This document shows, piece after piece, positions 12,178 through 63,928 of a stretch of DNA of 64,000 nucleotides. Under the pieces are notes generated by a model. It was not told the origin of the DNA. It searched no databases and was given only the letters and a program-made list of their open reading frames with translations. Each line of letters opens with the position of its first letter. The stretch's first letter is position 1. The stretch is from Candidatus Roizmanbacteria bacterium RIFCSPHIGHO2_02_FULL_40_13b (lineage in GTDB: Bacteria; Patescibacteriota; Microgenomatia; UBA1406; HO2-37-13b), in contig MFZQ01000014.1 of assembly GCA_001789445.1 (NCBI GenBank), forward strand, positions 11,557-75,556, in the 5' to 3' direction. The translations under genes were made by a program, and so were the position numbers.

Positions 12178-12195
12178 CAATTTAATAAAATATTT

Positions 12196-13527
12196 TCATA
12201 GACTTGAGCCAGGTAATTGAGATGCTTCTGAATAGAATAAATCTCCTTTATCATCATCTCTTTCACATGTAATTTGAATTATATCCTGAGGAGACATTAC
12301 TATTGATGCCGCTTTATAAACACCAGTATTCCATACAGTTCTAGTTCTGGTTGGATTATGTGATTCAGGTATGAATCCGTCTCCTGTATAGAAATACTCC
12401 GCATTATTTGATCGCCGAAGGTCTTCAATTAGCGTTTGCCAAAATACTCTATCGTGACTTGCGCCATGTTTTTCGGCCGTAGCATGAGCAAAAGCATTGA
12501 ATAATGGCCAGTCTCCTCCATTATGATAATCCCCTGGTAAATATTGTCGATTAAATTCTCTTGGATTTAGATAACCTCCATCTTCTGTAGCAACTACAGG
12601 TATTCCTCCAGAATTTTTTGGTAGGCTATATACTGTTTCTAAAACAATTGAATCAGAAAGTAATTGCTCTCCAAATAATGCCATAGCTAAAAATTCGCCA
12701 GTAAGCGAGCTCACATCTGTGTATGGTTGTGAACGAGAAAATTGAAGTCTACCAGACGAATGTTGCAGTTGTTGATATCCATCAACTGCCTCCGCTATTT
12801 CTGATCCATTTCCCAAACCAAGACGTGTCACTGCAACAGTTGTAGCAGCATAAATACCTTGAGTATAAGTATTAACATCAGCACGTGGAAAATGATATGT
12901 ATCAAACCAACTATGCTCAGTACCTGCTGGTGAAACATATTGTCCAAATTGTGTATGAGATTGGACCCATTCCCACCGTTGTCTCCATCTTGATTGTTCA
13001 TTTGCTTCAACTGGTTCTCCACTTTGAGCAAGTTTCGCTCGCCAAATAAGACCAAGCATTGTTGATTCATCGTCAAATGCCCACGTACGTGTACCTGGAA
13101 ATAAACGCGTCGTTGGTAAGTGTCCAGATGTGTCAGCTTTATCAAATTGTGATAATACATGGGCTTCAAAATCAGGCTCATCAATAAATAAAGTTCCATA
13201 AAATGAATCACGAACCCAATTATCACAATGAAATGGACTAGCTCTTAAGAAAGCTTGTTTTGGCATATATACTATATTTTGATTTAATAAATCAAATGCG
13301 GGCTGAAGATGTTCATGAATTTCTTTTTGTCTTTCAAGGTTATCCTGAATCCTTCGAAGTTCAGGAGTTAAAAAAGGGGCCGTTAGTACATTGATCGCTC
13401 GTACGTCAGTTCCTAAAGTATGGTATGCTCTTCGTGTACCAACTCCAAGTGGAGTTTTCGGTCCAGTTTCAAATTCTGGCTGTGATAAATGCAACAAACC
13501 TTCGATATTTTTAGACATTGGGAGCAA
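12196..13527 (-). CDS. Glycoside hydrolase with (alpha/alpha)6-barrel, GH100 neutral-invertase / GDE_C-like
   Basis: YHNGGDWPLFNAFAH motif resembling the GH100/GH63/GDE_C catalytic region. Length 443 aa. Confidence 0.5.
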   Translation of the reverse strand: MLPMSKNIEGLLHLSQPEFETGPKTPLGVGTRRAYHTLGTDVRAINVLTAPFLTPELRRIQDNLERQKEIHEHLQPAFDLLNQNIVYMPKQAFLRASPFHCDNWVRDSFYGTLFIDEPDFEAHVLSQFDKADTSGHLPTTRLFPGTRTWAFDDESTMLGLIWRAKLAQSGEPVEANEQSRWRQRWEWVQSHTQFGQYVSPAGTEHSWFDTYHFPRADVNTYTQGIYAATTVAVTRLGLGNGSEIAEAVDGYQQLQHSSGRLQFSRSQPYTDVSSLTGEFLAMALFGEQLLSDSIVLETVYSLPKNSGGIPVVATEDGGYLNPREFNRQYLPGDYHNGGDWPLFNAFAHATAEKHGASHDRVFWQTLIEDLRRSNNAEYFYTGDGFIPESHNPTRTRTVWNTGVYKAASIVMSPQDIIQITCERDDDKGDLFYSEASQLPGSSL

Positions 13528-50093: not shown

Positions 50094-50456
50094 TTGAGTC
50101 ATATGATTACAGTTTTACAGTCGGGGACATATGAACTCTTTGAAACAAAAGAACAGACTAAAATCCTAATTTTAGATAAAAAATATACATTTGCATGGGT
50201 AAGTATACGTGAAATTGGAGAAATTTTGGTAACTTCTCATAAAACGCATAAAACTGATACTACGCTTGCTCTGGGAAAATATCGATTATATGATGTAAAA
50301 GATGAACCAAAACTTTCTGATCAAATTCATCTTGAACTCGCACTAGGAGAAGGATTGTGGCAAGGATATTTGTTACCAACAGGTCTCCCAACAAATATAA
50401 AGAAAAGGAATCGAATAATCCCCACTATTGAAGTCATAACAAAATCAACTCATTGA
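50094..50456 (+). CDS. Hypothetical protein (120 aa)
   Basis: ORF only; no recognised motif. Confidence 0.3.
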   Translation: MSHMITVLQSGTYELFETKEQTKILILDKKYTFAWVSIREIGEILVTSHKTHKTDTTLALGKYRLYDVKDEPKLSDQIHLELALGEGLWQGYLLPTGLPTNIKKRNRIIPTIEVITKSTH

Positions 50457-51097
50457 TCTTTATGCAACTCCTGTTTTAACGAATGTAAGTCGTTAAGAAT
50501 CATCGTTTTGGCACTAAATGAAATAAGTTCTTTTTCTTTCAAATGTTTTAATTCTCTACTTACCGTTTCTTTGGTCATTCCAACTTGGGCGGCAAGCTGA
50601 CGATTTGTTATTATAATTTCCCATTTTCCGTTTTTCACGACGCCAAATCGTTTTGTATAAATGATGAGTTCTGTAATAAGCCGAGCATATGCATTTCCCG
50701 CCATTAAATATGTTATTTTCTGTGTTATTCCGTCTGTTCCTTTAAAAACTCGAGCTAGAAGATCATAGAGTACTTCTGGTTCATTTTTTATAAATGTAAT
50801 AACTTCTTTTTTAGGCGCTTTGTAAATATCAAGTTCTGTTATAGCTTCATAATAATATTCGTTTGGTGCGTCATTAATTGCCCATGACATCGGGAAAAAA
50901 GAAATTGGTTTGAAGATATTTACCACAAGTTCTTCTCCTTTTTGAGAAATAGCATATTCTTTAACAGAACCTTCTTTTAGATAAAAAATTCCTGATGGAG
51001 CTTCGTCCGCACGAATGAGGATCTCTCCTTTTTTATATGTCTGGTGTTGAAATTGAGTAAAAAAACGCTCAATTTTTTCAGCAAGTTGCGGGTTCAT
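50450..51097 (-). CDS. Crp/Fnr-family transcriptional regulator
   Basis: cNMP-binding beta-roll plus C-terminal HTH RQLAAQVGMTKETVSRELKHLKEKELI. Confidence 0.75.
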   Translation of the reverse strand: MNPQLAEKIERFFTQFQHQTYKKGEILIRADEAPSGIFYLKEGSVKEYAISQKGEELVVNIFKPISFFPMSWAINDAPNEYYYEAITELDIYKAPKKEVITFIKNEPEVLYDLLARVFKGTDGITQKITYLMAGNAYARLITELIIYTKRFGVVKNGKWEIIITNRQLAAQVGMTKETVSRELKHLKEKELISFSAKTMILNDLHSLKQELHKDQ

Positions 51098-52048: not shown

Positions 52049-52666
52049 TTACGGCATCGTTTCGACCATCATTTTGTAATAGACTTGACGGGTAAGCTCG
52101 ACATCTTTCATACAATACACGCAGATTTCCTCTATCTTCCCTTCTTGAAAATATGGCCAGACTTGCGACCCATCCATAACATCTTTTGACGTTGGAAATC
52201 CAAATACTTTGGCCAAGGTATCGAGCTTTACATTTTTTCCATACCCCCATTTTCCCCACTCGCTCATCGTATCAAAAAACGGCATACTGCGATATTTGGC
52301 AAATGAAAGCTCAAGGCGCGGTTTGACTCCATGAATGATGGAGCGCTGATAGATGAAGGGAAGGTCAAACTCAAAAATATTGTGTCCGATAAATTGATAG
52401 ACATCTGCGGCAATTCTCCAAAAATCGGAGAGCATTTGTTTTTCATCCCCTTTCAAAACACCTCTTTCTATTTGAGAACCTTCTTTGATGTATCCAATGC
52501 AACAAATACGACCAAATGTACCATCAAACGATGTTTTGGCAATCAGCTCATCAACCTTCTCAACTATAAGACCTTCGCCATCTTTCTTACTTTTGATTTC
52601 CAGATATAAATTCTTCATCGACTCATCAACCGGAATTGTTTCGATGTCAAAAAAGAGTTTTGTCAT
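52049..52666 (-). CDS. DEDD-family 3'-5' exonuclease (RNase H-like; PolB-exo-like)
   Basis: Exo I motif LFFDIETIP, with further acidic motifs (HNIFEFD, YCMKD). Confidence 0.6.
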   Translation of the reverse strand: MTKLFFDIETIPVDESMKNLYLEIKSKKDGEGLIVEKVDELIAKTSFDGTFGRICCIGYIKEGSQIERGVLKGDEKQMLSDFWRIAADVYQFIGHNIFEFDLPFIYQRSIIHGVKPRLELSFAKYRSMPFFDTMSEWGKWGYGKNVKLDTLAKVFGFPTSKDVMDGSQVWPYFQEGKIEEICVYCMKDVELTRQVYYKMMVETMP

Positions 52667-53019: not shown

Positions 53020-53646
53020 TCAAGGTTGGGAAATATTTTTTTGAACATTAGAGTTCTTCAAAACTTTGACTGGTTTATCCCCGTCTGCAGGATCAATAAT
53101 GCCTGCAATTTCAAGTGCATCAATGAGACCTGCTGCACGTGCATACCCAATACTAAGCTTTCTTTGTAAAAGTGGTGTAGAAACTTTTCCAAATTCTTGT
53201 GCTAATCTTACCGCATCATCATATACTGGGTCAGTTTTAGGATTAAGAATCTCCCGAGGTTTTGCGCCATCAACCGGACTTACGATTCCTCTTTTTTCCA
53301 TCATATCTACTAACTTTGAAGCTCTGGCATATCCAATATCTAGTTTTCTCTGTAGTAATGAAGTTGATACTTTCCCTGCCTGCATAATTGCAATCACTGC
53401 TTTGGAGTACAGGGGATCAAAATTAACATCAAGATCATCTTCTGTTTGATCTATAAATTGTTCTTCTGTAGTTGGATTAAGTCGGGAAGTAAGAATTTGA
53501 ACTGTTCTATTGAGATCAGAAATTTTCTCCTCATTTTTTTCTTGCAATTCTCGTGAAGTACTTTCGAGCCTCCATACCTCATACAAAAGGTACACTAGTA
53601 ATGCAAATATGAGAAACAAAGTAATTTGGGTAACAGTCATAACCAT
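53020..53646 (-). CDS. Membrane-anchored protein with two tandem FtsK-gamma (KOPS-binding winged-helix) domains and no motor domain
   Basis: N-terminal TM plus coiled coil, then two repeats: DPLYSKAVIAIMQAGKVSTSLLQRKLDIGYARASKLVDMMEKRGIVSPVDGAKPREIL and DPVYDDAVRLAQEFGKVSTPLLQRKLSIGYARAAGLIDALEIAGIIDPADGDKPVKVL. Both match the ftsK C-terminus at 25909-26100. Confidence 0.65.
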   Translation of the reverse strand: MVMTVTQITLFLIFALLVYLLYEVWRLESTSRELQEKNEEKISDLNRTVQILTSRLNPTTEEQFIDQTEDDLDVNFDPLYSKAVIAIMQAGKVSTSLLQRKLDIGYARASKLVDMMEKRGIVSPVDGAKPREILNPKTDPVYDDAVRLAQEFGKVSTPLLQRKLSIGYARAAGLIDALEIAGIIDPADGDKPVKVLKNSNVQKNISQP

Positions 53647-53734: not shown

Positions 53735-56047
53735 TCATAAATAAGCTGCCTTAGCATATAAATCTTTCTGGAACGCAAAAAAAATTGATCGGATATCCTC
53801 TACACTTCCAAGTGATTGTTCGGCATTAGCAATGGCATGATATTTTATATTTAATAATATTGGCAACATTTCTTCATCAAGTTCTTCGACCCCTTTTTCT
53901 TCGTATTTTGACAGCACAAAATCTAAAAATTCTTTTTGTTTTTCATCGAGTCCCTCAAAAATTTTGTCCTTTGATTGTGCTATTCTTTGTGTTCTTGAAA
54001 TCGGCTGTGTTAAGAATGAAATATATGTTAAAACGTCAAATAAATCACTTTGCTCAGCATCGATCAATTTTTGCAATGTTTCTAATTCATCTTTACCATA
54101 ACCTCTTTCAGCAATCTTTTCTAAGAATGCTTTGCGTGTGGTTGGGTTTGACCAAATTTTTCTTAACTCTTCCTCATTCTTAAAAAAGTCTGGCAAGACA
54201 CCGAACATATTATCCATAAACTCATTTACAGAGATTGGCTTTCCATCAGGACCCCAAAATGATGTAGAAATCATATGTTTTATCTCACGTTCTTTACCAT
54301 CTCGTAATTTTATTTTTAATTTTTCCTTTGGTTCCACTTGATCTTTGTCACCAATAACTAAACTCTGATCATTAACTGGCTCCGGATATTTAATTACCTT
54401 TGGCTCGCTCTCTGCTGTATCATCTACGGGTTCCCCGTCCCATTCCGAATCAGAAAAATGATGATAAGCATCAACAAAATCAAAAATTGTAAAATATTCT
54501 TTACCATCAAAAAGTCTCGTCCCACGACCAATAATTTGTTTAAACTCAATTATAGAATTGACTGGCCGCATCAAAACAATATTGCGAATATTACGTGCAT
54601 CAACACCGGTTGAAAGCTTTTGTGATGTGGTTAAAATAGTGGGAATTGTTTTTTCATTATCTTGAAACTCTCGTAAAAATTGCTCACCTCGAAATCCATC
54701 GTTTGCTGTCACTCGCACACAATAATTTGGATCTCTACTGTCTTTCATTTGATTTACCAAATCACGAATTGCCAAAGCGTGGTCTTGTGTTGCACAAAAT
54801 ATAATCGTTTCTTCGTTTTGATTTATTTCGTCCAAGATTATGCGAACTCGTTTAGCTTCGCGTTCTTTAATAAAAATAATTTTATTAAAGTCGGGTTCTT
54901 CATAAATTTTGCCTTCCTCTACTTCTCCTTCAATTATTTGATCATCAGAAACGTACATATAGTCATCAAGAGTCGTTTTGATTCTTTTGACTTTAAATGG
55001 TGTTAAAAACCCATCGTTTACGCCTTCCTTGAGTGAATAAATATAGACTGGTTCGCCAAAATATTTATACGTATCTACGTTATCTTTTCGCTTTGGTGTA
55101 GCTGTTAATCCTAGTTGAACAGCTGGCGAAAAATATTCCAAAATCCCCCGCCAATTACTTTCATCGTTAGCGCCACCTCGATGACATTCGTCGATAATAA
55201 TAAAATCAAAAAAATCGGATGGGTAATCACCAAAATAAGGAGTACCGTTTGAACCACTCATAAACGTTTGGAAGATTGTAAAAAAAATACTTCCGCTCAT
55301 TGGCACAGCGCCTCTTCTTCTAATATCCAATGGATTGATTCGTACAAGCGCGTCTTCGTCAAAAGCAGAAAAAGCATTAAATGCTTGATCAGCTAATATA
55401 TTTCTGTCTGCCAAAAATAAAATTCTTGGCCGACGTGTACTATCACGTTTTAAATTCCATCGGGTCTGAAACAGTTTCCAAGCAATCTGAAAAGCTACGG
55501 CCGTTTTTCCGGTTCCAGTTGCCATAGTCAAAAGAATTCTGTTTTTTTCTTCAGCTACCGCGTTTAAAACATTATTAATGGCAATTTCTTGATAATAGCG
55601 GCTGCCATATTCGCCCTCATTTGGCACACGGGCAAATTTTTCTTTCCATTCATTTTGATCCGAATAGGTCTTGTTCCACAGCTCATCTGGAGTGGGAAAA
55701 TTGACAACTGGTCCTTCATGTCCAGTTTTCATGGACATTTCATAAATCTCACGGCCATTAGATGAATACGTAAAATCAATATGCATTTTTCCGGCATATG
55801 CTTTAGCCTGAGCAACTCCCTCACCACATTCTTGATCTTCAGCTTTAGCTTCAATCACACCAATTTTGTGATTTTTATACACAAAAATATAGTCAGCTAT
55901 CTCTGGCTTGCTCCTAGTTCCACCAATTTGGATTTTACCATCAGTAATCCGAAATTCTCGAAGAACTTTTGATCCCTCGACAACTCCCCACCCGCTCGCT
56001 TTAAGCTTTGGATCAATAAGTTCTGCCCGTGTTTCCGCTTCGTTCAT
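53735..56047 (-). CDS. hsdR: Type I restriction enzyme R subunit HsdR
   Basis: N-terminus MNEAETRAELIDPKLKASGW, Walker A MATGTGKT, DECH box and helicase motifs. 770 aa. Confidence 0.9.
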   Translation of the reverse strand: MNEAETRAELIDPKLKASGWGVVEGSKVLREFRITDGKIQIGGTRSKPEIADYIFVYKNHKIGVIEAKAEDQECGEGVAQAKAYAGKMHIDFTYSSNGREIYEMSMKTGHEGPVVNFPTPDELWNKTYSDQNEWKEKFARVPNEGEYGSRYYQEIAINNVLNAVAEEKNRILLTMATGTGKTAVAFQIAWKLFQTRWNLKRDSTRRPRILFLADRNILADQAFNAFSAFDEDALVRINPLDIRRRGAVPMSGSIFFTIFQTFMSGSNGTPYFGDYPSDFFDFIIIDECHRGGANDESNWRGILEYFSPAVQLGLTATPKRKDNVDTYKYFGEPVYIYSLKEGVNDGFLTPFKVKRIKTTLDDYMYVSDDQIIEGEVEEGKIYEEPDFNKIIFIKEREAKRVRIILDEINQNEETIIFCATQDHALAIRDLVNQMKDSRDPNYCVRVTANDGFRGEQFLREFQDNEKTIPTILTTSQKLSTGVDARNIRNIVLMRPVNSIIEFKQIIGRGTRLFDGKEYFTIFDFVDAYHHFSDSEWDGEPVDDTAESEPKVIKYPEPVNDQSLVIGDKDQVEPKEKLKIKLRDGKEREIKHMISTSFWGPDGKPISVNEFMDNMFGVLPDFFKNEEELRKIWSNPTTRKAFLEKIAERGYGKDELETLQKLIDAEQSDLFDVLTYISFLTQPISRTQRIAQSKDKIFEGLDEKQKEFLDFVLSKYEEKGVEELDEEMLPILLNIKYHAIANAEQSLGSVEDIRSIFFAFQKDLYAKAAYL

Positions 56048-56059
56048 ACAATAATTTTA

Positions 56060-56590
56060 CTATGTAAAGAGCTTTTTAACCTCTTTTGCCACTGAAAAAA
56101 CAAATTCAAGATCTGCTTTTGTGTAATCTTTAATCTCTTTATGTATGCCAATATGCTGTTCGTTTCTCAATTGTCTAACTCTATCGATTTTTTTAAATAA
56201 TTCATCTTCTATGCAGTCTTTAGCTTTCAAAAAATTATTAATATTGCCCAGATTAAGTTTTTCAAATTTTATTTTTTCAGGATTTTTCATGTAATCTCCA
56301 GCTATAATTTGATGACTATCAGTAACTTCGTGTAATACTATTTTATTTGTGAAATCCCATTTGTAGATTACCAAATCTTCTTTTGTATATTTCTTCTCCA
56401 ATAGATATAAAAGCAATGCCTCAATAATTGATGCTGTGTAAATAATTACAGTTTTTCTAAAACTGCTTTTGGCTAAGTCACTATAACTCTTTGATTCTGA
56501 AAATGGAATTAGATCAAGAATATGATTAAAGGCAATATCAAGATTTTCTCTCAAAACTAAGTCGCTAACAAAGGGGAAGTTACTAGCCAT
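56060..56590 (-). CDS. Hypothetical protein inserted between hsdS and hsdR; possible HEPN-like (R-x3-6-H) motif
   Basis: 176 aa, alpha-helical, C-terminal RVRQLRNEQHIG. No confident family. Confidence 0.3.
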   Translation of the reverse strand: MASNFPFVSDLVLRENLDIAFNHILDLIPFSESKSYSDLAKSSFRKTVIIYTASIIEALLLYLLEKKYTKEDLVIYKWDFTNKIVLHEVTDSHQIIAGDYMKNPEKIKFEKLNLGNINNFLKAKDCIEDELFKKIDRVRQLRNEQHIGIHKEIKDYTKADLEFVFSVAKEVKKLFT

Positions 56591-56594
56591 AGTC

Positions 56595-56789
56595 TCAAGG
56601 CTTGAGCATCTCAGAAAGAGATCTGTATCCTTTTTGTTTTAAATAATTACCAAGCTTCATATTTGATTTTACTCCCAAATCAATGCCATATTTTTTTTCA
56701 ATTGTTCCGACTTTTGTATCAAACCTTTTTGGAGTGAACTGACCCTTGTTATTCTTAGCTCGCGAGGTCTTTGTTTGTTTTGTATTCAT
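56595..56789 (-). CDS. Small basic protein (64 aa)
   Basis: Lys-rich with pI well above 10. Lies in the R-M operon between hsdS and the HEPN-like gene. Confidence 0.3.
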   Translation of the reverse strand: MNTKQTKTSRAKNNKGQFTPKRFDTKVGTIEKKYGIDLGVKSNMKLGNYLKQKGYRSLSEMLKP

Positions 56790-56822
56790 AGATTTATTAT
56801 ACCAGCTTTAAAGTAAACTCCA

Positions 56823-58001
56823 TCACAATTCTCCGGCAAACGCCTTCCTGAGCACAGATTTCTTCATCTCCTCCAAATCAGCCAATTTTTGTTTATAAAT
56901 AACTTCCAGTTTTTTAGTCTCAGCCGAAAGCGCATCAAGTTTGATAACAATAGATTTTTGTTCGGAAATATTAGGCATTGGAATAACAAAATCTAAAACC
57001 AAATTCATATTCGCTCTTGGCATTCTGGCTCCTGTCCATGTAGCATTTATTTGTTTAACTGTTTCTTTGGAAATAAGCCAATAAAATAAAAAATTTCTGT
57101 AAAGGTTTTTATTAGGCTTGATAGGGAAAATCTCTGTTGAACAATGACCTTCAAAGTTTGGTAATAGCACTTTATTGAGATATGGTCTTAGTCTTCCATA
57201 TAAAACATGCTCACCACTAAAATGGAAAGTATTGCTTTTTACTTTCAATGGATTCAACGAGCCAAGAAATTTACCAGTATTAGATTCTATATCTTCAAGT
57301 CCAACATACGGCAGATTTGTTTTTTTGTACGGAGTTTTATCATATTTACACACCTCATCCAAGGTATTCTCCTCCCAATCTTTCCCCGGATTAGCAAAAA
57401 CACTCTGCAAATATGATTCAAAAAGCTCTTTGGAGTTTTGAAGATTTTTTTCAGTGTTTTCTTTCGCCTTCGCCACTTTCCCAAAAACCTCATCTAGTTT
57501 TTTTACAATTCGTGTTTGCTCACTGAATGATGGCAACGGTGCCTCAATATCTTTATATGCCTGCATATTTAGATTCCTTATACCAGTTGAGTGACTTTGC
57601 ATTCTCTCTGTTATGCCAGATATATAAGAATAAAATAGAAACTTATGTAGGAAATTAAAATCCAACTCACTTTGATCTTTAATTCTGATCACAGATGTAA
57701 AATTACTAAAAGAAAACTCGCCATCTTTTTTATTAAAAATAATGACACGTCCAACTGGCTGTTTCGGTCCACCCCCTGATTTCTCCAGAACAATATCGCC
57801 ATACATCAGTTTACGATTTGCAAATTGCTTTTTCTCAACATCTAAATAAGCTACGTCAGAGTCGTCTAAACGGCCATCTTTAGTAATGTTTGTATTACGA
57901 ATCACACCAATATTTATATATGGTGGTTCTTTTCCTTTCCATAGGCCGTTATAGAAATCACAGGTCTCACTAAGTTTTTTGGTTTGCCAATTATTTTTCA
58001 T
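56823..58001 (-). CDS. hsdS: Type I R-M specificity subunit HsdS
   Basis: Two target-recognition domains separated and followed by conserved coiled regions. 392 aa. Flanked by hsdM and hsdR. Confidence 0.85.
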   Translation of the reverse strand: MKNNWQTKKLSETCDFYNGLWKGKEPPYINIGVIRNTNITKDGRLDDSDVAYLDVEKKQFANRKLMYGDIVLEKSGGGPKQPVGRVIIFNKKDGEFSFSNFTSVIRIKDQSELDFNFLHKFLFYSYISGITERMQSHSTGIRNLNMQAYKDIEAPLPSFSEQTRIVKKLDEVFGKVAKAKENTEKNLQNSKELFESYLQSVFANPGKDWEENTLDEVCKYDKTPYKKTNLPYVGLEDIESNTGKFLGSLNPLKVKSNTFHFSGEHVLYGRLRPYLNKVLLPNFEGHCSTEIFPIKPNKNLYRNFLFYWLISKETVKQINATWTGARMPRANMNLVLDFVIPMPNISEQKSIVIKLDALSAETKKLEVIYKQKLADLEEMKKSVLRKAFAGEL

Positions 58002-59439
58002 AATATGAACGCAACAATTTTATGGAGTCAACTAACTTAGTATTAAAATCTTTTCCTCTGTTCGACGGATAATGAATACAGTTTCTTATGTATGTTGGCA
58101 GAGTTATCTTCTTATCTCCTTTTTTTAATGGGTACTCTTGTTCGAGTTTTTTTACCTGCACAAAATAACCATTATCAAATTCTTTTATCCCAACAGCGTC
58201 TTTATTATTTTCATCGCCATAAACCGCTCTGAGATGATCGTATAATTCGTTATGATAATCAGTGCTAGAAATTTCAAAAACATCGTACGTCACACTTGCA
58301 TATGTTGATGCTTTTTTTTCAAATTGTTTTTTTTCTGTTTTTTCTTTCTTTGTTTCCTTGTTAGGATTTTTAAATATTTTGTAGTTTCTGCTTAAGTCGT
58401 CCTTATCTATCATGTAGTTAGAATGTGTAGCAAAAAAAACAATATTATTTCTTCCACTCCGAGTAATCTTCACCAACTCTTTTAACAAGTCTTCTTGAGC
58501 TTGCGGATGAAGATGGGTTTCTGGTTCATCGAGTAACAAGATTGAGTTAGAGAGTTCGTTGTTTCTATTTTGCGCAGATACTGTTAAAAGAAAAGACACG
58601 AACTGCTTAAATCCATCGCTTCTCTGATCAGCAGTTTTTGCCTTTCCTTTCGTACCGATATCGTGTACATGAAAATTTATTAAACCATCTGATATGTCAA
58701 ATGTTACTTTGATCGGGTGTTTCGGCCAGGCTGTATTAATATGTTCGCTTACTTTATCACTCAGTTCAGTTTTCAACTGTTCGCGCTCGGTAGATTCTTT
58801 AGCTAGGTCTACTCTTGCCTTAATGGCATCCTGCCCAATAATCCCAGCAAGTGCAAAACAATTTTTTAATGGCACTGAGATATCATCTGGTGTACTTGCA
58901 AATTGATCTAAATCTATTGGTTGGGAAATTAAATATCGATCCTCAGCTGTCCAAAAAATAGTTTTATGGGCTTTGTTTAAAATTGATTCCTTTATAAGCT
59001 CTTGAGCTGCAGATTTATTTTCATAATCATCCGTAATATTAATAATTTCTAATTTAATTTCAGACTGGCTTGGATTTGCATAATTAAAACCAATAACAAG
59101 TTTGATGTCTTTTATGTCAACGTCTTTTGTATCTATTGGTGTTTCTTGGGATTTTAAAAGCTCTTTATATTGATTTGCTTCATCCTCTTCTAAAGAGTAT
59201 GAATATTCAATCTCTATTGACTTCAATCTATCTTTAAAATCGTTCTTTAGTGGTAAAGGATTACCTTTTTCATCTTTAAGACCATCTTTTAATGCCAATG
59301 CTTTTAGAATGGTTGACTTGCCCGCCTCATTGACACCGATCAAACCATAAGTAAAAGTATTATCACTAAGAGGTATAATATCAAAAGATATTTCTTCTAT
59401 ACTTCTGTAATTCTTTATTTGTATTGACTTTAATATCAT
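57991..59439 (-). CDS. ABC/SMC-like AAA ATPase (AAA_21/OLD-PrrC-like N-domain) with an uncharacterised C-terminal domain, inserted between hsdM and hsdS
   Basis: Walker A GVNEAGKST, Walker B/D-loop LLLDEPETHLHP, H-loop FFATHS. The ~130 aa C-terminus has RNCIHYPSN and YDHLRAVYGDE. Confidence 0.7.
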   Translation of the reverse strand: MILKSIQIKNYRSIEEISFDIIPLSDNTFTYGLIGVNEAGKSTILKALALKDGLKDEKGNPLPLKNDFKDRLKSIEIEYSYSLEEDEANQYKELLKSQETPIDTKDVDIKDIKLVIGFNYANPSQSEIKLEIINITDDYENKSAAQELIKESILNKAHKTIFWTAEDRYLISQPIDLDQFASTPDDISVPLKNCFALAGIIGQDAIKARVDLAKESTEREQLKTELSDKVSEHINTAWPKHPIKVTFDISDGLINFHVHDIGTKGKAKTADQRSDGFKQFVSFLLTVSAQNRNNELSNSILLLDEPETHLHPQAQEDLLKELVKITRSGRNNIVFFATHSNYMIDKDDLSRNYKIFKNPNKETKKEKTEKKQFEKKASTYASVTYDVFEISSTDYHNELYDHLRAVYGDENNKDAVGIKEFDNGYFVQVKKLEQEYPLKKGDKKITLPTYIRNCIHYPSNRGKDFNTKLVDSIKLLRSYYEK

Positions 59440-59442
59440 ATT

Positions 59443-60894
59443 TTATAAATATTTACTGATGCTATTTAATATCTGTCCACTTTTCTGATCCAAGCTTCTC
59501 ATTTCTTCCAAAATCTCCTTTGGATTGCGTAATGGTGCCGAGCCAATTTTGTTTGGATTTTTTACCGATAAGTCAAATGTTTTTTGATCGATATTTTTAA
59601 CATCAATGCTCCACGAGTTTTCGCTATCTGCTTTTGTTTTTTGTAGTTCGACAAATTCTGCCAAGTCCGCTTCGCTTAATGGGTTGCCCTTACCGAGGTT
59701 GCGGGTGAGGTTGAGTTGGTAAAACCAAACTTTTTTTGTTGATGCGCCTTTTTCAAAAAATAATACAACGGTTTTAACCCCTGCTCCGGCAAATACACCA
59801 CCTGGGAGATCAAGCACTGTGTGTAGATTGCAACTTTCTAGAAGAAGTTTCCGCAGCGAAACAGAGGCATTGTCGGTATTAGAAAGAAACGTATTTTTGA
59901 TAACAATACCAGCCTTACCACCTGCTTTTAGAATTTTGATGAAGTGTTGAAGAAAAAGAAACGCTGTTTCGCCTGTTTTAATTGGGAAGTTTTGTTGAAT
60001 TTCTCGTCCAATTCCAGCGCCGAAAGGTGGATTGGCCAAGACTATGTCATATCGATCTTTTTCTTGAATATCATTGATATTTTCAGCCAATGTATTCATG
60101 TGCCGAATATTTGGCGCTTCAATACCGTGCAAAATCATATTCATAATGCCTATGATATATGCGAGTGATTTTATTTCTTTACCATAGAAAGTTTTGTTTT
60201 GCAGTATTGATATCTGACTTGATGAAAGCTTTGACTGATTTTGAGTGAGGTAGTTAAATGATTCAACCAAAAAGCCTGCACTTCCACACGCTCCATCGTA
60301 AATTGTCTCACTAATTTTCGGCGCAACTACTTTTACAATCGTTTTAATAAGTGGACGTGGTGTGTAATACTCGCCACCATTTCGGCCCGCGTTGCCCATG
60401 TTTTTTATTTTGGCTTCGTAAAGATGTGAAAGTTCGTGTTTCTCTTCATATAGTCGGAAGTGCATGCCGTCAACGATATTTAAAATCTCCCGCAATTTAT
60501 ACCCACTGGAAATTTTATTTTTGAGTTCATGAAAAATTTCGCCAATCTTATATTCAATTGTATTTGGATCTTCCGCTCTAAATTTCTTGAGATATGGAAA
60601 CAGATTATTATTTACAAAATCTTTTAGATCGTCACCATCAAGCGCTTTATTATGATCGAGTTTGCCTTCGTCGTTCTTTGGACACGCCCATATATTCCAC
60701 TGGTATTCCGGAGACAAAATATATTTATATTCCTTCCCAGCTAGTGCCGCTTCCGTTCGTTTTGTTTCCTCCAGACCATCAAGATATTTCAAAAAGAGAA
60801 CCCATGAAGTTTGTTCCACATAATCAAGCTCTGTTCCACAACCGGAATCGGTATGAAGAATATTGTCAATGTTTTTGAATGATTGCTCGAACAT
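59443..60894 (-). CDS. hsdM: Type I R-M N6-adenine DNA methyltransferase HsdM
   Basis: VLANPPFG catalytic motif, an AdoMet-binding motif, and a typical HsdM N-domain. Confidence 0.9.
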   Translation of the reverse strand: MFEQSFKNIDNILHTDSGCGTELDYVEQTSWVLFLKYLDGLEETKRTEAALAGKEYKYILSPEYQWNIWACPKNDEGKLDHNKALDGDDLKDFVNNNLFPYLKKFRAEDPNTIEYKIGEIFHELKNKISSGYKLREILNIVDGMHFRLYEEKHELSHLYEAKIKNMGNAGRNGGEYYTPRPLIKTIVKVVAPKISETIYDGACGSAGFLVESFNYLTQNQSKLSSSQISILQNKTFYGKEIKSLAYIIGIMNMILHGIEAPNIRHMNTLAENINDIQEKDRYDIVLANPPFGAGIGREIQQNFPIKTGETAFLFLQHFIKILKAGGKAGIVIKNTFLSNTDNASVSLRKLLLESCNLHTVLDLPGGVFAGAGVKTVVLFFEKGASTKKVWFYQLNLTRNLGKGNPLSEADLAEFVELQKTKADSENSWSIDVKNIDQKTFDLSVKNPNKIGSAPLRNPKEILEEMRSLDQKSGQILNSISKYL

Positions 60895-60936: not shown

Positions 60937-61191
60937 CTATTTATACACTCCTTGTCTGTGGCCGATTTTGATAACTAAAATAAGCAATTGATGTTGATAA
61001 ATTTGATAGATGATTCGGTAAGGCCACATACGAAAACTATATGATCCTTTATATTCTCCTTCTAATTTTTTACCAATAAGTGGATTTATCGATAATGAAA
61101 TGAATGCGGAAAGAATTCTGTTGTATTCTTTTTTTGGAATTTTTTTAAGTTTTTTTTCGACTGTTGGTTTTAGTTTTACTTGGTATGCCAT
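60937..61191 (-). CDS. Type II toxin, RelE/ParE family
   Basis: 84 aa; YRIIYQI...IGHRQGVYK is RelE-like. Confidence 0.7.
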   Translation of the reverse strand: MAYQVKLKPTVEKKLKKIPKKEYNRILSAFISLSINPLIGKKLEGEYKGSYSFRMWPYRIIYQIYQHQLLILVIKIGHRQGVYK

Positions 61192-61504
61192 ATTTCTTTG
61201 CGACTTTATCAGAAACTAAAAAGCCCTCTTGTTTCAGTAGGGCATCTAGTGTGACCCAATTTTTATACTCTCCTGATTCAAACGCTTTATGTGCTTCTTC
61301 AATATCTTTTGAAAGATCAGGAAATTGTTCCATTACCTCGAATGTCTCTTGCCATGATTCAAACTCTTCAGCTGATATAAGTACCGCTTTGGGCCGACCT
61401 TTTTCAGTAAAAGTATAGTGCACTCCCGGCTGTTGTACCGCTTCGGCAATATCAAAAATATTCTTTCGCGCTTCTGTTATTGGAATAGTTGTTTTTGTGT
61501 TCAT
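61145..61504 (-). CDS. Type II antitoxin, Phd/YefM family
   Basis: IPITEARKNIFDIAE...PKAVLISAEEFESWQETFEVM. Its 3' end overlaps the toxin gene by 47 nt. Confidence 0.6.
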   Translation of the reverse strand: MNTKTTIPITEARKNIFDIAEAVQQPGVHYTFTEKGRPKAVLISAEEFESWQETFEVMEQFPDLSKDIEEAHKAFESGEYKNWVTLDALLKQEGFLVSDKVAKKYGIPSKTKTNSRKKT

Positions 61505-61551: not shown

Positions 61552-62217
61552 TTATATTTGTCCTTTTTCTTTAAATGAAACGTATTTCGATGAACTCACA
61601 ATAATATGATCTGCCATTTCTATTCCCAGTATTTTCCCAGCTTCAATAATTCGTTTTGTAACAAGTTCATCATCATGTGAAGGTTCGGGATCACCTGATG
61701 GATGATTGTGGACGATAATAATACTTGCCGCATTATGCTTTAATGCCGGCGCAAATACATCGCGCGGGTGAACAATACTAGCATTAAGCGTACCGATTGA
61801 AATTGTTTCCGTCGTGATAAGTTGATTGCGCGCATCAAGGTAAAGTGCTACAAAATGTTCTTTCTTTTTATGACGAATGTCGCCTACTACTTTAATAACA
61901 TCGCCAGGTGTTGTAATTTTAATTGACGGATCATTTTTAAAAATACGCTTAGCGATTTCAAGAGATGCGGAAATAATAGATGCACGTGAAGTTCCAACAC
62001 CTTTTAATTTAGCGATTTCTTTTGGGTCCATTGCGGCTATATCCATAAAAGACAACGTTTTTAGAATTCGCTTAGCAACGCTTATTACATTTTGACCTTT
62101 ATAACCAGTGCGAAGTAATATTGCGAGCAGTTCAAAATCATGCAATGCACGGGGTCCTTTTTCAAAGAGTTTTTCACGAGGTTGACTTGAATGGGGCAGG
62201 TCCTTGATGCTAGCCAT
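61552..62217 (-). CDS. radC: RadC-like JAB/MPN domain protein (UPF0758)
   Basis: An HhH-like N-domain and the JAMM motif HNHPSGDPEPS. Confidence 0.8.
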   Translation of the reverse strand: MASIKDLPHSSQPREKLFEKGPRALHDFELLAILLRTGYKGQNVISVAKRILKTLSFMDIAAMDPKEIAKLKGVGTSRASIISASLEIAKRIFKNDPSIKITTPGDVIKVVGDIRHKKKEHFVALYLDARNQLITTETISIGTLNASIVHPRDVFAPALKHNAASIIIVHNHPSGDPEPSHDDELVTKRIIEAGKILGIEMADHIIVSSSKYVSFKEKGQI

Positions 62218-62260: not shown

Positions 62261-62389
62261 CGTGGATCCCGAAACGAGTTCGGGATGACGGCGGGCAAGG
62301 CACGTTCAGGATGACCCCACTTCGTCACGTTCATGTAAACCGAACGTGACTACGAGGGGCAAGCAGAGGGTGGGATCAGGATGACAGAG
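62261..62389. repeat. Cluster of three GC-rich repeat units with core TTC(A/G)GGATGAC, plus two perfect hairpins
   Basis: AGTTCGGGATGACGG (62277), CGTTCAGGATGACC (62304), GATCAGGATGACAGAG (62374). Hairpins ATCCCGAAacgagTTCGGGAT and GTCACGTTCatgtaaaccGAACGTGAC. Confidence 0.55.
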
Positions 62390-63206
62390 AGGGCTTAAGT
62401 TTCTTGATGGATGGATTTCCCAGGAGTGATTTCATTTGTGAAATTGCACTCTGATTGAGCTGAATTAATCTTTCGGGCTGAGAAATTCCTTTTTTAATGA
62501 GTTCTGCGTTTATTCCTTCCAGATTTGCGAGTACTACCAGTTTTGTTACATCTTCATAATCGCGAATATTTCCATCTTTTTTAGGATTTTGATCTCGCCA
62601 ATCCTTAGCAGTCCTACCAAATAACGCACTATTTAATACATCGGCTTCTGTTGCATAGACGACAGTGATAGATTGTTTCGAAATGTTTGGTGGGATCAAG
62701 TGTATCATAATCGCATCGGTATGGATTCGATAATTAATTTTAGTGAGCTGTCTTTTTATATCCCAACCCAAAGCCAATCGTTCATTTTCTTCTGATTTAA
62801 GTCGTTGAAATTCCTTGATTAAATACAACTTAAATTCTGGGCTAATCCAACTGGCAAATTCAAAGGCAATGTCGCGGTGCGCAAAAGTACCTCCATATCT
62901 ACCAGCCGACGACCGAATACCTATCGCATTTGTTTTTTTAATCCACTTTGAAGATGATACTATAAAGCCATTTGAGCCGGCTTCGTTTTTAATGTTATTG
63001 AATTCCATAACATTAAAATTTGGATTATGCACCTGTTCCCAAGTGCCCATAAATTGAATTGTATACTTCGTAGATAGCCAATTCACAATTACTATACCCG
63101 TTGCTTCACGATCTTTGAATTTGGCCATATCAGTCAAAGAAATATATTCTTCCTCATTGTCTTTCACGACTGCTATTTGTAGACCTTGAGCAATAATTTT
63201 TTTCAC
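62376..63206 (-). CDS. KilA-N domain protein (phage/virus-type DNA-binding)
   Basis: N-terminus ISLTDMAKF and GGTFAHRDIAFEFASWISPEFKLYLIKEF, which is the KilA-N/APSES-like signature. Confidence 0.6.
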   Translation of the reverse strand: MKKIIAQGLQIAVVKDNEEEYISLTDMAKFKDREATGIVIVNWLSTKYTIQFMGTWEQVHNPNFNVMEFNNIKNEAGSNGFIVSSSKWIKKTNAIGIRSSAGRYGGTFAHRDIAFEFASWISPEFKLYLIKEFQRLKSEENERLALGWDIKRQLTKINYRIHTDAIMIHLIPPNISKQSITVVYATEADVLNSALFGRTAKDWRDQNPKKDGNIRDYEDVTKLVVLANLEGINAELIKKGISQPERLIQLNQSAISQMKSLLGNPSIKKLKPSLSS

Positions 63207-63334: not shown

Positions 63335-63406
63335 TCCCCTGTAGCTCAACGGTAGAGCAGGATCCTGTTAAGATCAAGGTTCGTGGTTCGAATCCACGCG
63401 GGGGAG
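63335..63406 (+). tRNA. tRNA-Asn (anticodon GTT)
   Basis: Acceptor TCCCCTG/CGGGGGA, D-arm GCTC-AACGGTA-GAGC, anticodon loop CTGTTAA, T-arm CGTGG-TTCGAAT-CCACG. Closely matches E. coli tRNA-Asn. Confidence 0.85.
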
Positions 63407-63928
63407 CCTAGATGGATGAGTGTTCAATTCCACAAGGTATGAAAAGGGGAATCTGTGCTCTACAACAACCTCTTTGTTAGTCAAAAAAAGGTTCGAAGAT
63501 ACCTTCCTCAAAAAAAGATATTGTGGTAGCTCTTTTGCCTTCAAAAAATACTTTTCAGCGTTCTGACAGAGCAAAAAGAAGTTCGAAGCTTTTTTCTGCC
63601 AATCAAGGCTATTTTTTTCCAGCTTATTTTGTGTCCCCAAAAGCTGAATCCTGTCATTTTCTTTTTTCTGTTTGTATTCCTCATATACTTCATCAGGACT
63701 CTTGTCCCCTATGGCTGTTATTTTCCCAGCAATCCGCATCTCAAAGAGATTCTTTAGCTCGGTATCAATTTGACCAATACGTTTACTTATATTGACCAAT
63801 AATTTATTCTGATCCTCCTTCAATGCAGAATACTCCCGATCCATCTCCTCAAGTAGAAATTCAGAAAGATCCATGCCTATGTCGATAGGTGCAACTACCT
63901 TGTCAGCAAACTCCTGTACAAGGTCCAA
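63374..63928 (-). CDS. Hypothetical coiled-coil protein; the 3' end of the ORF runs antisense through tRNA-Asn
   Basis: ORF only. The last ~11 codons are the reverse complement of the tRNA, so the real stop and extent are doubtful. Confidence 0.2.
   Translation of the reverse strand: MDLVQEFADKVVAPIDIGMDLSEFLLEEMDREYSALKEDQNKLLVNISKRIGQIDTELKNLFEMRIAGKITAIGDKSPDEVYEEYKQKKENDRIQLLGTQNKLEKNSLDWQKKASNFFLLCQNAEKYFLKAKELPQYLFLRKVSSNLFLTNKEVVVEHRFPFSYLVELNTHPSRLPRVDSNHEP

Follow-up and report, generated by a model that had tools for sequence, protein, structure and literature searches.

Patescibacteria (the candidate phyla radiation, CPR) have tiny genomes in which few defence systems are recognised beyond restriction-modification (R-M). 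PrrC is an anticodon nuclease encoded in the EcoprrI type IC hsd operon, where it is silent under the intact R-M complex and serves as an RNase back-up (PMC3710099, PMC3458546). The embedding of such cassettes has been documented in type I R-M, BREX and DISARM systems, and the embedded genes often encode ABC (ATP-binding cassette) ATPases or proteins of the HEPN, RelE or NYN RNase type (bioRxiv 10.1101/2024.01.29.577857). According to a HEPN survey (PMC3710099), at least 16 HEPN clades are linked to R-M systems, DUF4145 is found in operons with R-M systems, and an ABC-HEPN architecture together with R-M linkage has precedents in PrrC, RloC, APECO1_4465 and ERFG_01251. Two-gene HEPN toxin systems, i.e. 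HepT/MntA (SO_3166/SO_3165, a type VII toxin-antitoxin (TA) system), RnlA/RnlB and LsoA/LsoB, were also compared. Here, an hsd operon was analysed that lies on the minus strand of a 64,000 nucleotide (nt) stretch of DNA, referred to as the window, from Candidatus Roizmanbacteria bacterium RIFCSPHIGHO2_02_FULL_40_13b (contig MFZQ01000014.1, 11,557-75,556; the G+C content given for this CPR genome is 33-42%). Three genes are inserted in the operon, encoding an ABC-type ATPase, a basic protein of 64 amino acids (aa; p64) and a protein of 176 aa (p176).

We consider it probable that the locus is an intact type IB operon whose two slots each hold an accessory module, independent of one another: the ATPase, which would be wired to the R-M system, and p64-p176, a unit that resembles TA or abortive infection systems. 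The inserted genes most likely act as RNA-cleaving toxins or abortive-defence modules.

Two junctions of one hsd operon

The six genes follow each other in the order hsdM (59443-60894, 483 aa), ABC ATPase (57991-59439, 482 aa), hsdS (56823-58001, 392 aa), p64 (56595-56789), p176 (56060-56590, including the stretch RVRQLRNEQH) and hsdR (53735-56047, 770 aa). This order had been proposed by an earlier examination of the letters alone (the sequence-only reading), together with the type I identity of the Hsd subunits, the ABC type of the ATPase and the basic nature of the 64 aa protein, and all of these were confirmed; the family assignments of HsdM, HsdS and HsdR hold in Pfam, PADLOC and NCBIfam. 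It had further described stops and starts that overlap, which is correct for ATPase/hsdS (11 nt), the other four junctions being short gaps of 3 nt (hsdM/ATPase), 33 nt (hsdS/p64), 4 nt (p64/p176) and 12 nt (p176/hsdR). Decay into pseudogenes was not observed: all six open reading frames (ORFs) are intact, without a single frameshift, and their lengths agree with those of their homologues. The tight packing is operon-like. A consensus scan for promoters and terminators, in which the matches did not exceed the shuffled expectation, gave no terminator-like site on the minus strand within the six genes. This makes a single transcription unit plausible.

HsdR matched NF046051, an NCBIfam equivalog model for R subunits of EcoAI/FtnUII type I systems, over residues 1-764 with 804.4 bits, against a cutoff of 550 and a model of 768 positions, and the Pfam families ResIII, Helicase_C and EcoEI_R_C (1.2e-25). 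HsdM matched N6_Mtase (2.6e-63) and HsdM_N in Pfam and, over its full length, MTase_I in PADLOC (2.7e-155). The Methylase_S family of Pfam was found in two stretches of HsdS, corresponding to two target-recognition domains (TRDs), and PADLOC Specificity_I matched it over its full length (1.9e-52). HsdM is 62-87% identical to HsdM of related operons; the identity of HsdS is just 24-42%, as expected for variable TRDs. With HsdR above the equivalog threshold and with a separate HsdM and a two-TRD HsdS in one operon, the backbone is a complete and intact EcoAI-type (type IB) R-M system.

Related operons, in which HsdM and HsdR are 69-87% identical to those of the window (62% for HsdM of locus L045), differ in what they carry at the two junctions. 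Between hsdM and hsdS, the ATPase gene is present in the window, in L029-L034 and in L045; in L033, a gene for a C39-like peptidase and an ORF of 217 aa come after it (11404-12614), followed by hsdS and hsdR. The same junction holds three unknown genes in L112 (4660-6381, the first of them weakly KwaB-like) and nothing in L109 and L110. Between hsdS and hsdR, p64-p176 is found in the window and in L109-L113, a GNAT acetyltransferase gene in L030 (3329-3856; M-ATPase-S-GNAT-R) and nothing in L033 and L078 (ATPase-S-R, the L078 contig beginning within the ATPase gene). The order is M-S-p60-p176-R in L109 and L110, and in L112 it is M, the three unknown genes, S, p59, p176 and R. The p64-p176-bearing L109-L111 are devoid of the ATPase and L112 has its three unrelated genes in that place; conversely, ATPase-bearing hsd operons do not contain p64-p176, the window excepted. 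Judged by these junction contents, the three inserted genes form two modules that are independent of and unrelated to each other, one in each slot, and the slots are filled combinatorially. The nesting of accessory cassettes between genes of a multigene defence system is shared with the PDC and HEC genes of PADLOC; p64 and p176 differ from these in that they match no PADLOC v2 model and in that their host lineage is CPR/Patescibacteria.

The sequence-only reading had treated the three inserts as a single module. Such an integrated R-M-coupled defence module, in which the ATPase would sense, a HEPN protein would be the effector and a small protein would regulate, would be in keeping with the presence of all three genes in one tight operon that lacks an internal terminator-like site, and the combination of an ABC ATPase with a separate nuclease effector is common (PARIS, Septu and HEC-01 to HEC-03; bioRxiv 10.1101/2024.01.29.577857). 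However, p64 or p176 was matched in none of 83 ATPase loci and the ATPase in none of 25 genome loci that bear the pair, the hsd-embedded pair of L109-L112 occurs without the ATPase, and in the window itself hsdS separates the ATPase from p64-p176. By this distribution the three-gene module is largely refuted, and we regard it as very improbable. The conservation of gene order was borne out in part: embedding in hsd operons recurs in relatives, but the ATPase and p64-p176 were not found together in any other locus examined.

A TATAAT-like hexamer was seen about 2-8 nt upstream of the start codon of the gene that follows hsdS, namely before p64 in the window (56790-56822), before the p64 homologue in L112 (7518-7529) and before hsdR in L033 (13804-13809). 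Its role could be that of a promoter within the operon or of an AT-rich initiation region.

The ATPase gene behind hsdM

The ATPase matched AAA_15 (3.9e-22) and AAA_21 (3.2e-20) in Pfam and, in PADLOC, Old (1.7e-27, model positions 195-377 of 578 only), AriA (9.7e-24), GajA, AbiLi and PtuA; the match to PADLOC HEC-01A and PDC-M01A was limited to the common ATPase core. Weak NCBIfam matches were obtained with the retron Eco8 effector, PtuA and the "restriction system-associated AAA ATPase", and the closest solved sequence in the PDB is 6p74, an OLD-family endonuclease. All family matches are confined to the ATPase core. The Walker A motif GVNEAGKS (G35-S42, 59314-59337, minus strand) has G35, N37, E38, G40 and K41 invariant, and the Walker B motif LLLDEPE (L301-E307, 58519-58539, minus strand) D304, E305, P306 and E307 (alignment A3). 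Both motifs, the RSDGF signature and H339 are invariant across 30 homologues, which suggests that the ATPase is active. A Toprim domain was not detected: no Pfam Toprim family matched, and the protein ends at residue 482. The adjacent genes are hsdM and hsdS, and neither these nor the neighbours of the stand-alone ATPase homologues provide an AriB (DUF4435/Toprim) or PtuB (HNH) type of partner. Judged from these matches, the protein is an ABC ATPase of the OLD/AriA/PtuA/GajA kind without Toprim. It has its best core matches, and the Walker A/B motifs, signature and H-loop, in common with the OLD family (P2 Old, GajA, AriA, PtuA of Septu and retrons, HEC-01A). It differs from OLD and GajA by a helical domain of about 125 aa in the place of Toprim, and from PARIS, Septu and OLD by the lack of an adjacent Toprim, HNH or DUF4435 gene.

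This C-terminal domain (residues 358-482, 57994-58368, minus strand), which is tentatively HEPN-like, contains nine residues that are invariant in 30 sequences (F388, Y395, H396, L447, T449, R452, N453, S472 and I473). In the model, the penultimate helix ends with the motif R452-N453-C-I-H456 (58072-58086, minus strand); H456 is present in 27 of the 30 homologues and H457 in the other three. Modelled alone from 23 aligned sequences, the domain forms a helical bundle with a predicted local distance difference test (pLDDT) score of 86. A Foldseek search of this model against the PDB gave no match, none of the profile methods connected the domain to HEPN, and the profile search of PDB sequences gave chance-level matches only. 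The sole hint of HEPN was given by weak single-member matches to Cas13d and Csx1. In a profile-profile comparison with the p176 family only the RNxxH heptad was aligned, with a probability of 0.08. This indicates that p176 and the C-terminal domain are not demonstrably related. An ABC ATPase with a HEPN-like domain is the likely, if unproven, composition of this protein. If the HEPN-like tail is correct, the ATPase has the domain logic of PrrC, RloC, APECO1_4465 and ERFG_01251 as outlined in PMC3710099. Alternatively, the domain could have a helical regulatory, oligomerisation or partner-binding role instead of being a nuclease, the ATPase then being an accessory or sensor protein with its effector elsewhere (HsdR, or none after the loss of Toprim). 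We grant this alternative a real but lesser chance.

An analogy with PrrC and RloC, drawn by the sequence-only reading for the inserted genes, applies to the ATPase if to any of them, and by architecture only. An ABC-type NTPase domain at the N-terminus and a small helical C-terminal domain with conserved R and H are common to all three proteins, and nesting of the gene in a type I hsd operon, which is recurrent among close homologues of the ATPase, is shared with PrrC. As distinct from PrrC and RloC, AAA_13 was not among the 11 Pfam families that matched the ATPase with E <= 0.1, and its core is closer to OLD, AriA and PtuA than to the Rad50/SbcC-like PrrC. The gene also occupies the hsdM/hsdS junction of a type IB backbone, whereas prrC is located between hsdS and hsdR of a type IC operon; moreover, the HEPN call of the tail is tentative and the R-M linkage is not obligatory.

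The genomic context of the ATPase was determined in 80 metagenome loci and in three loci from look-ups of two close homologues, all of which were searched with the Hsd proteins of the window. Among the informative loci, hsdM was directly upstream in 12 of 21 with an ATPase similarity of at least 400 bits, in one of 23 with 250-400 bits and in none of 18 below 250 bits. The order of the hsd-linked loci was always M-ATPase-S(-R), also in L048, where HsdM is 33% identical, and in L037, L040 and L043, which have a different N6_Mtase family. The occupation of the same junction after hsdM on diverged backbones argues for repeated capture, or retention, and hence for a functional tie to the M and S subunits. 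Because this clade recurs exactly between hsdM and hsdS, we infer that the ATPase is functionally wired to the R-M complex.

In locus L027, from a CPR genome, a stand-alone close homologue of the ATPase is convergent with a gene (9513-10424, minus strand) whose 303 aa product matches Pfam HEPN weakly. A helix-turn-helix gene is adjacent.

The p64-p176 pair

A word-indexed search for p176 homologues gave 127 clusters, in none of which a Pfam domain was found; the few with a named source all belong to CPR groups. An exhaustive search extended this to 501 clusters at 50% identity. Among the 150 listed, 117 are 160-212 aa long, and the shorter ones match just part of the profile. The AlphaFold model of p176 (pLDDT 92.4, predicted template modelling score 0.81) has helices at residues 11-31, 38-67, 114-123, 129-143 and 158-175, with a beta-hairpin at 74-106 that forms an insert of 33 residues between helices 2 and 3. 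In the model the protein adopts a four-helix up-and-down fold, and p176 is confidently assigned as a HEPN-fold protein. The figures tabulated with this fold are 11.4 for the SO_3166 toxin, 10.5 for AF0298, 10.3 for both HepT and TTHA0636, 9.7 for both HI0074 and sacsin HEPN, 9.3 for AbiA, 8.7 for Csm6 and 7.8 for LsoA.

Invariant in 34 p176 sequences are F7, L27, T47, T52, I55, E57, L60, R139, R142, N143 and H146. The motif R139-Q-L-R142-N143-E-Q-H146 (56153-56176, minus strand), at the end of helix 129-143 and in the following loop, is a putative RNase active site, and RxxRNxxH was retained in all five sequences read from a distant subfamily of about 200 aa. PMC3710099 describes the HEPN active site as an Rx4-6H motif that lies where helix 3 ends and in which a polar residue follows R, together with a conserved acid in helix 2. 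In p176, R139 and H146 are separated by six residues, R142-N143 is nested between them and the invariant E57 lies in helix 38-67; the spacing of R142 and H146 alone is Rx3H. The only Pfam signal was DUF4145 (PF13643; E 0.023, residues 114-165, which include the motif), a HEPN family, with 15.2 bits against a gathering threshold of 23.1, which it thus missed. In ten distant members of the family, neither DUF4145 nor any other Pfam family was matched above threshold, and a profile search against PDB sequences gave chance-level matches only. A partner resembling p64 is not among the DUF4145 associations in the part of PMC3710099 consulted. From HepT, RnlA and LsoA, p176 differs by its beta-hairpin insert and by the motif RxxRNxxH.

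The partner p64 has an isoelectric point (pI) of 10.3 and consists of a Lys/Arg-rich N-terminal tail and a conserved core of about 40 residues, RFDTKVSTIEKKYGxDLGVxSDMKLGxYLKxKGYPSLAKML. Its family comprises 324 clusters; among the 120 listed, 116 are 52-68 aa long and none has a Pfam domain. One recorded protein, from Candidatus Roizmanbacteria RIFCSPHIGHO2_02_FULL_40, shares 100% identity with p64. No match to p64 was found in Pfam, the PDB, PADLOC or PHROGs, and 24 members of the family had no nucleotidyltransferase or other Pfam match. Unlike the partner of HepT in HepT/MntA, this basic family thus lacks an MNT domain and a match to any known antitoxin family. Neither p64 nor p176 gave anything above threshold in Pfam, NCBIfam, PADLOC or PHROGs, and the expectation that the inserts would fall outside housekeeping families was upheld for all three in the Pfam, PADLOC and NCBIfam searches.

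In each of the 25 loci from GTDB genomes, and in all 29 loci overall, the gene immediately upstream of p176 was a p64 homologue, at a spacing of -23 to +33 nt (median 4 nt), and the pairing is also kept in the distant p176 subfamily of about 200 aa. Across the 29 loci, the identity between any two copies of p64 correlates with that between the corresponding copies of p176 (r = 0.57), a value that was reached in none of 2000 Mantel permutations. Like TA modules in general, the pair is co-directional, tightly spaced, inherited as a unit and placed in variable contexts. Its flanks are common only to closely related genomes, and neighbour clustering aimed at a conserved third gene gave only local synteny between close genomes. 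None of the 25 GTDB loci has an adjacent hsd gene. The R-M coupling that had been suggested for the inserts therefore holds, as regards p64-p176, for the subclade nearest the window only. This general autonomy implies that the pair does not need the R-M system.

Las1 is a housekeeping HEPN RNase. By analogy, p64-p176 could be a lineage-specific RNA-processing or RNA-binding pair of Patescibacteria, with p64 as a basic subunit that confers RNA or DNA-binding specificity. Both families are basic on average (median pI 9.9 for p64 and 8.7 for p176, that of the window p176 being 7.0), their neighbours in the 25 genomes belong mostly to translation and housekeeping Pfam families, p176 is seemingly confined to CPR apart from two metagenome-assembled genomes (MAGs) labelled Gammaproteobacteria, and no PADLOC defence model is matched. 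On the other hand, the pair is sporadic, with 25 species hits among 185,579 GTDB species genomes scanned with one narrow peptide pattern, its flanking genes differ in nearly every genome, and some copies lie beside DpnI or a type III-like system or inside hsd operons. This sporadic, variable and restriction-adjacent pattern fits accessory mobile genes and not core functions, which leaves the RNA-processing pair a rather unlikely explanation.

The two contigs from MAGs labelled Gammaproteobacteria are L013 and L021. L013 shares synteny with L010 and with L014, a contig from Uhrbacteria, and is therefore probably a mis-binned CPR contig. In these three (L010 4167-14153, L013 10537-20519, L014 10536-20519) the cassette is followed, after a gap of 2-3 nt, by ORFs of about 365, about 626 and more than 2300 aa.

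Only in the subclade nearest the window is p64-p176 situated between hsdS and hsdR. Its closest relatives are P0002, with a p176 that is 68% identical in the order hsdM-hsdS-p60-p176-hsdR, and P0003 (62%), with three unknown genes after hsdM followed by hsdS-p59-p176-hsdR. P0006 (59%) and P0009 (57%) lie beside a type III-like R-M system and beside DpnI, respectively, and neither is embedded. Both inserts of the window could be selfish passengers, i.e. addiction modules or neutral insertions that are tolerated at hsd junctions and unlinked to restriction. Such a genomic sink has been discussed for embedded genes (bioRxiv 10.1101/2024.01.29.577857), the same junctions in relatives house unrelated genes (GNAT, C39 peptidase and three unknown ones, one weakly KwaB-like), p64-p176 occurs mostly away from R-M, and two close ATPase homologues stand alone. 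However, a single neutral insertion would hardly account for the ATPase at the same junction after hsdM on backbones with an HsdM identity of 33% or less. In addition, the embedded pairs are 62-68% identical to that of the window, which is near the 69-74% of HsdR and suggests that p64-p176 was retained with the operon over considerable divergence. Passengers without a link to restriction therefore seem unlikely to us, if clearly less so than the integrated module.

Proposed mechanism and surroundings of the operon

If the two modules are what we think they are, they would act in different ways. In the slot between hsdM and hsdS, the helical and probably HEPN-like domain with its R-N-x-x-H motif would replace the Toprim nuclease of OLD. 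The analogy with PrrC and with sensors of the OLD type suggests that the ABC ATPase would act as a dimer and respond to the state of the R-M complex, to anti-restriction proteins or to DNA ends. Under an intact complex it would be silent; when restriction is blocked or overwhelmed, its C-terminal domain would be unleashed to cleave RNA, providing an abortive second line. In the other slot, p176, which is probably a dimer as other HEPN RNases are, would use the site R139/R142-N143-H146/E57 to cleave RNA, and p64, an obligate small basic partner translated just before it, would bind and restrain or direct it, most likely in an antitoxin-like manner. The pair would be an autonomous, horizontally mobile TA or abortive infection-like unit of Patescibacteria, which in one sublineage lodged in an hsd operon and was then co-inherited; there it may also stabilise the operon or act as a back-up.

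Gene anatomy, the p176 fold, the conserved motifs, the pairing and the distribution and context counts are what the analysis showed; that RNA is cleaved, that this is toxic, that p64 neutralises p176 and that the ATPase is coupled to the R-M complex are steps that we infer. Several observations weigh against this account. Close homologues of the ATPase stand alone among ordinary neighbours in Mucilaginibacter ginkgonis and in a CPR genome, which indicates that its R-M coupling is not obligatory. The R-to-H spacing in its C-terminal domain is Rx3H and falls outside the canonical Rx4-6H. Classical type II antitoxins are acidic, and the strongly basic p64 is atypical of these. This leaves a role open in which p64 could be a nucleic-acid-binding cofactor instead of a classical antitoxin. 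The Pfam matches of 83 scanned neighbours of p64-p176 are mostly to housekeeping families (ribosomal proteins, aminoacyl-tRNA synthetases, GrpE and RRF), with a few of the defence type (MmeI, NYN, nSTAND3 and RmuC), so that a defence role gains no support from guilt by association. Finally, IMG/VR viral contigs contained no close form of either cargo: there were no p176 relatives, and those of the ATPase were distant only.

A bolder version of the two-module account regards the EcoAI-type hsd operons of Patescibacteria as a two-slot docking platform that ties RNA-targeting effectors to the state of the restriction complex. Both slots of the window would then hold HEPN-type RNases, the ATPase having arisen from OLD by a swap of Toprim for HEPN, as a convergent re-invention of PrrC, and p64-p176 being a CPR-wide class of HEPN toxins, hitherto unrecognised, under the control of a new small basic partner. 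The pair would then be the earliest known case of a defence or TA family that is specific to such ultra-small symbionts. This version is doubtful.

In either version the locus points to two unannotated families. One is a HEPN family, which forms about 500 clusters when grouped at 50% identity and has an obligate small basic partner (about 320 clusters). The other is a clade of ABC ATPases nested after hsdM, which may be a PrrC-like RNase. If true, these would be CPR-specific additions to the catalogues of defence and TA systems, a second, independent ABC-NTPase/RNase back-up tied to type I restriction, and a case in which the fixed junctions of a single hsd backbone exchange their cargo combinatorially. 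Kinds that are already known include two-gene modules with HEPN toxins, fusions of an ABC-NTPase with HEPN, and type I R-M operons in which accessory genes are nested. As HEPN and ABC-ATPase genes had been found in R-M operons before, the advance is incremental and not conceptual. What is new are the members, p64 and p176 being absent from Pfam (2025), NCBIfam (2026), PADLOC v2 and PHROGs, and the type of partner for a HEPN protein. As far as we checked, in sources other than the published ABC ATPase classification, an OLD-like ATPase with a HEPN-like tail after hsdM is undescribed.

Directly upstream of hsdM, on the minus strand, a toxin of the ParE family and an antitoxin of the Phd/YefM type, with 84 and 119 aa respectively, are encoded at 60937-61504, and the best sigma-70-like match of the region (11/12) is located at 61545-61517, just before phd. 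Beyond this pair follow a RadC/JAB gene (61552-62217), a KilA-N gene (62376-63206) and tRNA-Asn on the plus strand (63335-63408). The presence of these genes places the hsd operon in an accessory island adjoining a tRNA gene. On the other side, the gene just downstream of hsdR (53020-53646, minus strand) encodes a protein of 208 aa in which there are two winged-helix domains of the FtsK-gamma family; a hydrophobic N-terminal stretch was seen in this protein by eye. Downstream of the island, also on the minus strand, a PolB-exonuclease-like 3'-5' exonuclease (52049-52666) and a Crp/Fnr-type regulator (50450-51097) appear to be ordinary neighbours. In the related locus L112, a KilA-N gene was likewise seen, after hsdR.

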